From Pelomonas sp. SE-A7 (GTDB taxonomy: Bacteria > Pseudomonadota > Gammaproteobacteria > Burkholderiales > Burkholderiaceae_C), in NCBI RefSeq assembly GCF_030345705.1, contig NZ_JAUASW010000001.1:2454301-2518300 (forward strand): a stretch of 64,000 nt of DNA, written 5' to 3'. Below, one piece after another: positions 33,001-36,000 of the stretch. Made by a program: the position numbers. Position 1 is the first letter of the stretch. Each line of letters opens with the position of its first letter.

Positions 33001-36000
33001 GCCACGGCGCACCGGTGGGGTGGAACCCCCAACCTGTGAGCCCTGCCTTCCAAGGCAGATCTGTTGGCGCCTGGCCGACCGAGCCGGTCAGTTCAAGCGC
33101 GAGTCCTTCGGCAGCCTTGCGGCCAGCCACTCATGCACGTCCGCTCGGATCCGCCTGCCCTTGAGCAGGAAGTCCTCGAAGCGGCTGGGCACGTAGGGTG
33201 TGAACAGCAGCGGCATCCTGGCTTCCTCCGGCGTGCGGTCGGCCTTGCGCGCATTGCAGGCGCGGCAGGCGGCCACCGTGTTCATCCAGCTGAGCGGGCC
33301 GCCACGCGAAGCCGGCAGGATGTGGTCGACCGTGAGGTCTCGCATATCGCGCGGCTCGCCGCAGTAGGCGCAGGTCTGGCGGTCGCGCCGGATCAACTTG
33401 AGTTTGCTGAAGCTGGGCGACACGTCGAACAGGTTCAGACGCGAGTTGCCACTGAGAGCCAGGATGGCGGGCACCTCCAGGATCGACTGATGGCCGGTGC
33501 GGACGTTCATCCCGCCACGCAGCACGGCCAGCGGCGTGTCACCGAGCGACCAGGCGATGGAGCGGGTGGCCACGTGGATGGCCGCCTGCTCGATCGAGAT
33601 CCAGGCCTGAGGCTGGCCGGTGATGTCCAGCTGCAATACGTCGTGCATGGCGTCCTCCCTTCTGTGACTGCGCACGAATCAATGTCTCTGGCAGGGGCGG
33701 CAGGGTTCGAACCTGCAAGCTGCGACTTCAAAGGCCGCTGCTCTTCCAGTTGAGCTACGCCCCAGCTGATGGCTTGTCGGGCAGCAGAGCTGCTCAACGC
33801 TGATAGTGATGACGGTTCTCGATCCCGCGACCTCCGGTTCGACAGACCGGCGCTCTTCCAACTGAGCTATGGCGACATGTTTCTCTTCTGGTCCGTGCGG
33901 CAGGACTTGAACCTGCAACCGCCTGCTCCCAAAGCAGATGCGCTACCAGTTGCGCTACACACGGGTCCTGCTCGCTGTGGCTGTCGGTGACGGGTTCCGA
34001 CGCCGCCCAATCGTTGCGGCCGGTTTCGCCGGTCGAAGCGCGAGCTCGACGACAGGCTTTGGTATGGCATCCCGTGCGGGAGTCGAACCCGCCTCTTCGG
34101 CTTGAAGGGCCGAGGACCTCACCGGAAGTCCAACGTGACAGAAATGAACGCTGGTGCCTCGTGAAGGATTCGAACCTCCGACTTCCGGCTTCGTAGACCG
34201 GCGCTCTGATCCACTGAGCTAACGAGGCGATGCAATCTCGGCTGTGTCCGCACGCGATCCGGGCAAGCGAGGCTCGCCTTGACCGCTGCATGCCGGCTCC
34301 GTCTGCAGAACGTGCGCGGCACACATGCACACCGGGCCGGCCGGTGCTTGTGCACGGGCACACCCGAAATGGCATCAATCCGATTCGCAGGCGCCAAACA
34401 AAAAGCCCGGTTCCTGCAGGAGACCGGGCTTCATGGGATCGACGGATCCCTGGAGTACGAAAGCTTCAGTAAGTTGGAGCTTTCCCCGGCGGCGTTGAGT
34501 CACCCTCATATCGGTCAAGGCGCGACTGGCCCTGTGCCAGCGGCAGCGCATGTCGACCTGCAGCGACGCACAAAGCCATCTCGCCCAAGAAGGGGCGTTT
34601 GGCGTTGGTGACGAGGGCTGGGCGAAGCATGATGAGTCCGTGTGGGTTGGGGTGAATCAACGAATGAGCGGATTGTGAAGAGTGTTCACAATCTCGTCAA
34701 CCACCTTTCACCCCTAGAATGCATGTGAAGTGTTTTAACAACACCCGCCGTGTCCAGCATCACTACCTTCCGTCGCATCAATGCCTTGTCGCTCTTCCAG
34801 ACTTTTGCGGAAGAGCGCATCACAGCAGGCGATCCTCCCAAGGGGCTGGAGTCGGCCTGGGCAACCAAGGTCGAGGTGAGCGGCGCCACCTGGTCGATGG
34901 CCAAGAGCGGGGCGCGACCGATCGGCGACAAGCTGGCGAGACAGATCGAGCAGCACTGCGGTAAGGATGCCGGGTGGCTCGATGAAGAGCGTGAGCCCGC
35001 GGGGCTATCTGCTGGGGAGCAGCAGTTCCTTGCGCTCGCGCTGAAGACCTATCGCGAGACGAATAGTGATGGGCGCAAGCGCCTGAAGCAGCTGCTGAAG
35101 GCGTTCAACACATAGGCTTCGACCGCGGCTGGAAACGAGCCCTTCGCCCCCTCGGGACATAGCAGCTGTTGCGGGAAGTCCAGCAACGGCGCAGCGGACA
35201 TCAGGTGCGGCCAGTCGCGGAGCCATCCCGCACAAGGCTCGAGGGCCAGCCAATGCGGACCAGCAGGCCGTCCGGCCCGGCAATCCCCACCTCGTAGAGG
35301 CCCCACTCGCGGTGACGCAGGACGCCGCCGGGGCGGATGATCAGGTCGTCCACGCGCGCGGCAATGGCGTCCACCTCCGGTGTGCGGATGAAGACGCCGA
35401 ACGGGTTGTGGGACTCGGGCACCCGCCAGGGACCGCTGCCCGCCTGCGTCAGGTGCACTTCGCAGCCCCAGCCGGTCATGATCAGGTAGTTGGCATCACC
35501 CCCCGTACGCTGGAAACCCAGGCGCTCCCAGAACGGCTGGGCCGCAGCCAGGTCATTGCTCGGCACGATGGCGAAGGCGCCTACGGTGACGGGGGTGGGC
35601 ATGGGGTGCTCCGGCTTGCGTTGGGTCGCCAGATTGTGCGGCGGCTAGTGCCGTCACTCACTTGCCTGCGGCAAATGAGTGACCTCCAAGCAATGCGCCC
35701 TTGTGCCGTCTCTCACTTGCCTGCGGCAAATGAGTGACGTCCAAGCAATGCAGCCTTGTGCCGTCTCTCACTTGCCTGCGGCAAATGAGTGACGTCCAAG
35801 CCCAGAAACCTGGGGCGCCCAGGGCGCCGCGCTGACTCCAACAAATAAAGTCCGTCGGAGAGGGCGCCGATAAGTGCTTGATTCTTCAGCACTGACGAGC
35901 TGGCGCAAAGTCCGTCGGGAGCTGCACGTTCGAAGCCCCTCGGGCAGTGATGACAAACAAAGTCAGTCGGAGTGCATGCTCGCGCTTCGAGGCAGCGATT

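Follow-up and report, generated by a model that had tools for sequence, protein, structure and literature searches.

Which of the repeats that fill the 340 bp between a VOC/glyoxalase-family gene and the end of zacC in Pelomonas sp. SE-A7, if any, forms the end of a mobile element? This question was investigated in a window of 64,000 nucleotides (contig NZ_JAUASW010000001.1 of assembly GCF_030345705.1, positions 2,454,301 to 2,518,300 of the forward strand), to whose first letter all window coordinates refer. The initial annotation had listed the multi-site transposase-binding end of a Tn7-like element among the options for this interval, taking a 55-bp tandem array for the binding sites and TGTGCGGCGG at 35636 for the terminus. 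We found that the interval holds two unrelated repeat sets, with a transposon terminus at 35833 between them. The kind of feature had been named correctly, but the repeat and the terminus had not: the true end is a set of AAAGTC motifs with the terminus TGACTCC at 35833. With a probability of roughly 0.85, the interval is the junction between host DNA and a large glmS-homing Tn7-like transposon, and the 55-bp array is a host minisatellite lying outside the element. The left (L) end and its immediate border are composed as follows (homologous loci used for comparison carry L numbers):

35833-35975, plus strand: left end of the Tn7-like transposon, consisting of the 8-bp terminus TGACTCCA and then three directly oriented putative TnsB-binding sites
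35841-35862, plus strand: putative site 1, ACAAATAAAGTCCGTCGGAGAG, which begins at element position 9, like the first TnsB site of Tn7-L
35901-35922, plus strand: putative site 2, with its core AAAGTCCGTCGG at 35907-35918; L086 and L089 have a second site equivalent to it
35953-35974, plus strand: putative site 3, ACAAACAAAGTCAGTCGGAGTG, a motif match whose spacing is kept in relatives
35828-35832, no strand: CGCGC, the 5 bp adjoining the terminus, predicted from mini-elements of the same superfamily to be one copy of the target-site duplication, whose second copy would be found past the window

Read rightwards from 35833, the terminus TGACTCCA continues into ACAAATAAAGTCCGTCGG, and two further sites follow 60 and 52 bp deeper. 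Each site measures ~22 bp, around the core A(A/T)GTC(C/T)GTCGG. The motif AAAGTC(C/A)GTCGG starts at 35847, 35907 and 35959, always on the plus strand; these three matches compare with 0.24 expected, and none of 100 shuffled sequences reached three. Three such motifs had been described before at the periodicity of the 55-bp array. The motifs themselves were confirmed, but the proposed spacing of 55-58 was not, since they stand 60 and 52 bp apart.

In at least six unrelated flanks, homologous elements were found to stop at the 16-mer TGACTCCAACAAATAA (window 35833-35848), the loci being grouped as the window, L086/87, L089/92/93, L090/91, L095 and L096, and the base preceding the T of TGACTCC varies between these flanks. 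In L086/L087 the cargo terminates with TGACTCCAACAAATAATGTCCGTCGA..., on a strand that mirrors the window, and blastn aligned window 35832-35920 with L086 17355-17267. All such L ends carry exactly three same-strand sites of the form [A/T]GTC[C/T]GTCG[G/A], separated by 60 and 52-53 bp. Loci L089 and L090 are 99.4% identical as far as the terminus and unrelated past it. Moreover, aligning L-type and right (R)-type ends gave an invariant block that starts with the T of TGACTCC and runs to ...GTCG, with random sequence outside it. The recurring 16-mer, the three-site spacing and the alignment break thus identify 35833 as the transposon terminus and the AAAGTC motifs as internal sites. Because the alignment breaks at 35833, everything to the left of it, namely the 55-bp array, the GC palindromes described below and TGTGCGGCGG, is flank.

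Between sites 1 and 2 we also observed a motif, TAAG(Y)NGTTGATTC (window 35866-35885), that is conserved in three diverged elements (the window, L086 and L089) and may be a fourth degenerate site or a site for a host factor. The left breakpoint shared by L089 and L090 was considered as an element end and rejected: it lies inside an open reading frame (ORF), has no sites and is probably a rearrangement.

The boundary at 35833 coincides with a change in composition. Third-position GC, measured per ORF, is 0.86 in the host-like VOC gene to the left and at most 0.79 in every ORF of 36000-64000, which bears out the earlier placement of the interval at the edge of a lower-GC island. The drop in GC is explained by a mobile island whose left boundary is 35833. 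This element spans more than 28 kb inside the window and continues past its right edge, so that the island, of roughly 40 kb by our estimate, now has a base-exact left boundary. The feature type is already known: this is an ordinary Tn7-like left end whose boundary can now be placed exactly, and its clade is poorly annotated.

We then considered the opposite end. Metagenomes were scanned for pairs of sites separated by 8-12 bp. At least 120 loci matched, and among the matches listed nearly all had the order TGA, ~10 nt, AATAAAGTC(T/C)GTCGG, 9 nt, AATAAAGTC(T/C)GTCG, which is the R-type end. R-type ends with the exact 26-nt terminus TGACTCCAACAAATAA[A/T]GTCCGTCGG and another site 20 bp further in were present, among the matches listed, in L118, L146, L147 and L212. 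In all four of these, the end follows a reading frame for the GlmS C terminus, with the stop codon ~20-25 bp from the transposon terminus, and many other ends of the superfamily likewise lie ~20-25 bp past the glmS stop codon. Locus L204, which belongs to the same protein clade (B696), shows the order glmS, R end, TnsD, helix-turn-helix (HTH) gene, TnsA-like gene, TnsB-like gene. A right end was found neither in L086 1-5200 nor in the 15.7 kb that precede tnsA in L218. The end signature, TGA followed by 14 nt and GTC(C/T)GTCG in three spaced or two packed copies, accounts for well over 100 metagenome ends and can be used to delimit elements.

Complete mini-elements with one R-type and one L-type end on the same contig were found in L100 (1600-4191), L153 (236-2350) and L126 (60-5456). 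In these three, the 4 bp that flank the two termini are identical; counting the T of the right-end TGA as part of the target extends the repeat to 5 bp (ATGTT, ATGCT, GCGCT). The mini-elements measure 2.1 to 5.4 kb; those of L153 and L100, at 2.1-2.6 kb, are too short for a full tns operon and are therefore probably non-autonomous. In L095 (1345-1420) and L089 (11098-11170), an L end is followed within ~3-5 bp by the R end of another element. The same type of junction was seen in L101, L117, L120, L124, L131, L161, L194, L201, L209, L213 and L214, and this recurrence indicates that Tn7-like elements commonly stack at one attachment site. Large defence-type cargo also lies between the right end and tnsD, in L218 (1-9800) and L118 (170-6626), an unusual place for the cargo of a Tn7-like element; its genes include NYN, QueC, nucleoside deoxyribosyltransferase, Abi_C, DpnII/MboI, RES and TIR.

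The right edge of the window cuts through one further gene of the element:

63262-64000, minus strand: short TniQ-like gene, last of the transposition operon, reading towards the L end; its frame is open to the window edge and its 5' part lies beyond

This TniQ-like gene had been suspected to belong to the same element, and homologous operons in relatives with the same end now bear this out. In 10 loci, homologues of the window gene are the fourth gene of an operon, after genes for proteins of 325, 696 and 456 amino acids (aa), and are followed by variable defence cargo. Divergently upstream of the operon lie an HTH_3 gene and a gene for a protein of 566-570 aa, which in the relatives has both a TniQ (5.5e-13) and a TnsD (8.3e-42) domain in Pfam and is thus a bona fide TnsD. 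A seven-member profile of the 696-aa family, compared with PDB sequences, gave a sole match, Tn7 TnsB (7pik_A; E=1.1e-11), across the catalytic region. The family has invariant D, D and E positions, and these fall where the catalytic triad of Tn7 TnsB lies. The 325-aa family, whose gene is directly upstream of the tnsB-like gene in all loci, matched TnsA by profile (1f1z, 1t0f; E=1.8e-5) over the N-terminal 70 residues only. The 456-aa protein fits TnsC in gene position and size; its matches to AAA_22 and AAA_16 are weak and that to VchTnsC reached an E value of ~1.4. The short TniQ-like protein matched TniQ weakly in PADLOC for the window copy (0.008); its family matched Pfam TniQ weakly as well (0.0023 for P0127) and aligned, again weakly, with the TnsD N terminus by hhalign (0.022, with collinear CxxC...CxxH). 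TnsE was not seen, and the short TniQ-like gene occupies the tnsD/tnsE position. A small ORF upstream of tnsA was considered as part of a Mu-like repressor/Ner pair and dropped, as Pfam returned no match for it.

Loci L084, L086, L088, L089, L144, L204 and L214 form a clade in which the TnsA-like and TnsB-like genes match nothing in Pfam or NCBIfam. The islands of this clade are probably under-annotated: with TnsA and TnsB invisible to both databases, such islands are usually annotated as hypothetical genes.

Comparison with known systems places the element close to Tn7. According to published rules of the Tn7 family, left-end sites are spaced, right-end sites overlap, insertion duplicates 5 bp and TnsD recognises the 3' end of glmS (PMC11406308). 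We read the end positions of Tn7 from E. coli genomes, where 25 bp separate glmS from Tn7-R and tnsA and tnsB come next, with sites at 10/30/51/71 in Tn7-R and 10/74/130 in Tn7-L. The window L end likewise has three spaced same-strand sites, at 9/69/121, and the right end of the family has tight sites ~20 bp apart and lies ~20-25 bp past the glmS stop. The gene set (tnsA, tnsB, tnsC, tnsD) is that of Tn7, the operon reads from the right end to the left end, and the site core AATAAAGTC is common to the Tn7-R sites (ACAATAAAGTCTTAAAC). However, the terminus reads TGA... here and TGT... in Tn7, and TnsA and TnsB are so divergent that only the family profile reaches Tn7 TnsB (1e-11) and TnsA (2e-5). 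The tnsD gene is divergent upstream of tnsA, beside the HTH gene, whereas the short TniQ-like gene stands in the tnsD/tnsE position. Many kb of cargo also lie on the right-end side (>15 kb in L218).

Tn7-like loci with both tniQ and tnsD are common, 1,048 having been counted (Faure et al. 2023, PMC10293859). These dual transposons share with the present element the combination of a long TnsD with a short TniQ and the presence of defence cargo, but here the two selectors are non-adjacent: tnsABC lies between them, and they are encoded on different strands. Other Tn7-like elements target CRISPR repeats, inserting within the array, at a set position of the spacers, via a truncated TnsD (Chacon Machado & Peters 2025, PMC11837452). 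A Tn7-like element beside regularly spaced palindromic repeats recalls these as a lead only: the array studied here stops ~24-31 bp short of the junction, on the left-end side, has identical "spacers" and is accompanied by no cas genes.

Several points weigh against our reading of the locus. The window itself contains neither a right end nor tnsA, tnsB, tnsC or glmS, so that the two-end structure, the target duplication and the adjacency to glmS are drawn from relatives, and no single contig joins an R-type TGACTCC end to tns genes. The 325-aa and 696-aa proteins, including members that share only 34-40% identity with one another, matched nothing in Pfam (no rve), NCBIfam or single-sequence PDB searches. 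Judged from sequence, the TnsC-like and short TniQ-like assignments are weak, and an AlphaFold model of the short TniQ-like protein was unusable (mean predicted local distance difference test score, pLDDT, 44). Identical elements also adjoin several different L flanks, partly through stacking against older elements, and not every insertion therefore need be at glmS.

Taken as a junction of host DNA and a Tn7-like element, the locus would work as follows. A TnsB-type DDE transposase of the element is predicted to bind the three putative L-end sites. The L end and a right end with tightly packed sites would form a paired-end complex for cut-and-paste transposition, the unequal site spacing at the two ends giving the element polarity, as in Tn7. 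By homology, an operon tnsA-tnsB-tnsC-(short tniQ-like) would lie at and past the right window edge and read towards the L end. The family would home downstream of glmS through TnsD, as extended from relatives to the window copy. Outside the element, 35603-35832 would probably be the host stretch after glmS, with the GC palindromes as a likely terminator remnant, and the 55-bp unit would have been amplified to about three copies by local tandem duplication and now lie in the VOC 5' region.

This leaves the nature of the flank and of its repeats, which are arranged as follows:

35201-35602, minus strand: VOC/glyoxalase-family gene with a weak Pfam Glyoxalase match, the host-side neighbour of the insertion
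35636-35645: TGTGCGGCGG, present as first described and outside the element
35645-35809, no strand: 55-bp tandem array of 2.8 to 3 copies with a 31-bp palindrome in each, in the host flank outside the element
35801-35827, no strand: GC palindromes CCCAGAAACCTGGG (35801-35814) and GCGCCCAGGGCGC (35815-35827), in the host flank, with no T-run after them

The array is the strongest in the window by Tandem Repeats Finder (35648-35801, period 55, 2.8 copies, 95% matches, score 280). Its copies, placed in register, occupy 35645-35699, 35700-35754 and 35755-35809, and their palindromes, with 14-bp arms and a 3-nt loop, 35653-35683, 35708-35738 and 35763-35793. Three copies of the 31-mer are present in the window, where 0 are expected. 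These results agree with the earlier description of 2.8 near-identical 55-bp units with a 14-bp-arm palindrome, and the two further GC palindromes were also where they had been reported. Arm complementarity is 13/14 in copy 1 and, counted by eye, 12/14 in copies 2 and 3, where one mismatch can pair as G-U on the minus strand. Five scattered positions, linker included, distinguish the units, which are 91-100% alike over hairpin and linker. Differences spread in this way over hairpin and linker point to tandem duplication of whole units and not to a series of binding sites with freely varying spacers. The array occupies the stretch ~24-188 bp to the left of the terminus, which is 43-207 bp upstream of the VOC start.

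The denial that this is CRISPR also stood: the units have in common the 24-nt stretch that separates the palindromes, and no cas gene was present among the genes scanned with Pfam and PADLOC. CRISPR, attC and integrase arm-site readings were all ruled out on anatomy. Folding z-scores were strong (-5.6 as RNA over 35603-35999; -5.9 as DNA over 35636-35835), owing to the palindromes. No terminator-like site (a stem with a T-run) was present on either strand of 35300-36200, nor was a promoter-like site, and Rfam at permissive thresholds returned tRNAs only and nothing at the array. The array formed a single cluster in the 64-kb window, with up to 8 mismatches allowed, and neither the 55-bp unit nor its hairpin had a copy in metagenomes, viral contigs, plasmids, phages or 2.29 Mb of collected loci. 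Nor does the array travel with the VOC gene (80 loci) or with the zacABC cassette (three contigs). Like REP/BIME elements it offers an imperfect palindrome of ~31 bp in an intergenic tandem cluster, but REP families are scattered through the chromosome in many copies, while here there is one cluster in 64 kb, head-to-tail and nearly identical.

The array is most likely host intergenic DNA upstream of VOC that was originally downstream of glmS, and it is probably an incidental minisatellite that arose by local tandem duplication. If insertion took the glmS route, the DNA that once followed glmS is the minus strand between 35832 and 35603, and the GC palindromes beside the junction are possibly the terminator region of the gene before the insertion point, presumed to be glmS. 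Classical work on Tn7 puts the insertion point of attTn7 in the terminator region of glmS. In L086 a terminator-like hairpin adjoins the L end likewise. We infer that the array plays no part in transposition.

Other explanations of the repeats were weighed against this one. The units could serve the host as a cis-element, either an operator array for a regulator of VOC or REP-like stem-loops that stabilise or insulate transcripts. The array would be well placed for this, lying in front of the VOC start and on the transcribed side of the presumed upstream gene, and the hairpins are very stable, with their G-U pair on the minus, sense strand. Such a role nevertheless seems doubtful to us, given that nothing similar lies upstream of VOC in the 80 other loci, that there is but one cluster in 64 kb, that the promoter, terminator and Rfam searches found nothing there and that no regulator gene is adjacent. 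The iterated protein-binding sites offered by the initial annotation likewise gained no support. A bolder reading, in our view improbable, would make the element a member of a glmS-homing Tn7-like clade that is deep and poorly annotated, with TnsA and TnsB missed by domain models, a divergent tnsD, a short TniQ-like second target selector and cargo on both sides of the transposition genes; in its boldest version, drawn by analogy with the Tn7-like elements that target CRISPR repeats, that selector would recognise structured or palindromic DNA such as the hairpin array.

Alternatively, an older and unrelated Tn7-like element could be stacked at this site, the array being its decayed left end, with TGTGCGGCGG at 35636 as the terminus and the units as three TnsB sites. 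Position and orientation fit stacking, as the supposed terminus reads inwards from the side far from the presumed glmS, and stacked L-end/R-end junctions are common in the superfamily; three units at 55-bp spacing also resemble L-end spacing, and TGTGCGGCGG resembles TGTGGGCGG of Tn7. However, the units are 91-100% identical over the full 55 bp, while in real L ends only sites of ~20 bp are conserved, and each holds a 31-bp palindrome, unlike TnsB sites. Moreover, 35809-35832 contains no right end or interior remnant, and the hairpin remained unmatched in the collections searched, including 2.29 Mb of loci rich in Tn7-like ends. We regard an older end as highly improbable. Hardly credible at all is the idea that the interval in its entirety serves the zacABC (helicase) operon as a 3' RNA element or a set of terminators, which the initial annotation had offered in the form of tandem terminators or an RNA element. 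The interval does follow the zacC stop codon (36000) immediately, on that gene's strand, but it lacks any stem with a T-run and any Rfam match. In addition, the 86%-identical zacABC cassettes of three contigs lose similarity at 36021 and have other DNA, without the repeats, downstream, and the AAAGTC sites recur beside unrelated cargo genes in other elements. The preferred reading thus keeps the array in the host flank and the AAAGTC sites in the transposon.

Inside the terminus, the element carries the following cargo:

36000-42153, minus strand: zacC, zacB and zacA, a defence system immediately inside the L end (PADLOC: ZacC E=0, ZacB 2e-167, ZacA 1e-129)
43873-62318, minus strand: Tc (ABC) toxin cargo (Pfam TcA_TcB_BD, ABC_toxin_N, SpvB, TcdB_toxin_midN, RHS_repeat)
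43873-54042, minus strand: TcA, 3389 aa (Pfam)
54861-62318, minus strand: TcB/TcC-RHS fusion, 2485 aa (Pfam)

ZacABC and the Tc toxin are cargo of the element and the TniQ-like gene is part of its backbone; an Xre/MbcA-type antitoxin is also encoded in the island. ZacC and the TniQ-like protein are 100% identical to proteins of Pelomonas sp. SE-A7. This Pelomonas chromosome thus has a ZacABC defence system and a complete insecticidal-type Tc toxin locus as the cargo of a transposon. Three metagenome contigs match the zacABC cassette at 86% identity, strictly within 36021-42243, and have different DNA downstream. With its identity bounded in this way and other neighbours elsewhere, zacABC seems to act as a self-contained mobile module. 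In those contigs it adjoins a type I restriction system and an RtcR-like regulator. Between the two cargo loci lies a terminator-like palindrome (42555-42589) with 12-bp arms, TTGCGGCAAATG/CATTTGCCGCAA, and a T-rich tail. The 11-mer TGCGGCAAATG is common to this palindrome and the 55-bp unit, which we took as a probable coincidence.

On the host side, DNA homologous to VOC in 80 loci stops at ~35193-35642 of the window. Neither the 55-bp unit nor the AAAGTC motif is present in any of these loci, no gene order is conserved around VOC among them at the DNA or protein level, and glmS lies near none. Between Proteobacteria, Acidobacteriota, Planctomycetota and Verrucomicrobiota, the VOC protein retains 80-93% identity. 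This suggests that VOC is a single gene that has often been transferred. Farther to the left, five tRNA genes form a tight array on the minus strand (window 32822-34228; Leu-CAG, Gln-TTG, Pro-TGG, Glu-TTC and Arg-ACG). The tRNA-Leu is merely 74 nt long, the long variable arm expected of tRNA-Leu seems to be missing, and a weak YrlA-like Rfam match overlaps it. A tRNA fragment (33812-33869) and a gene for an HNH endonuclease (33088-33675) both lie within this tRNA array.

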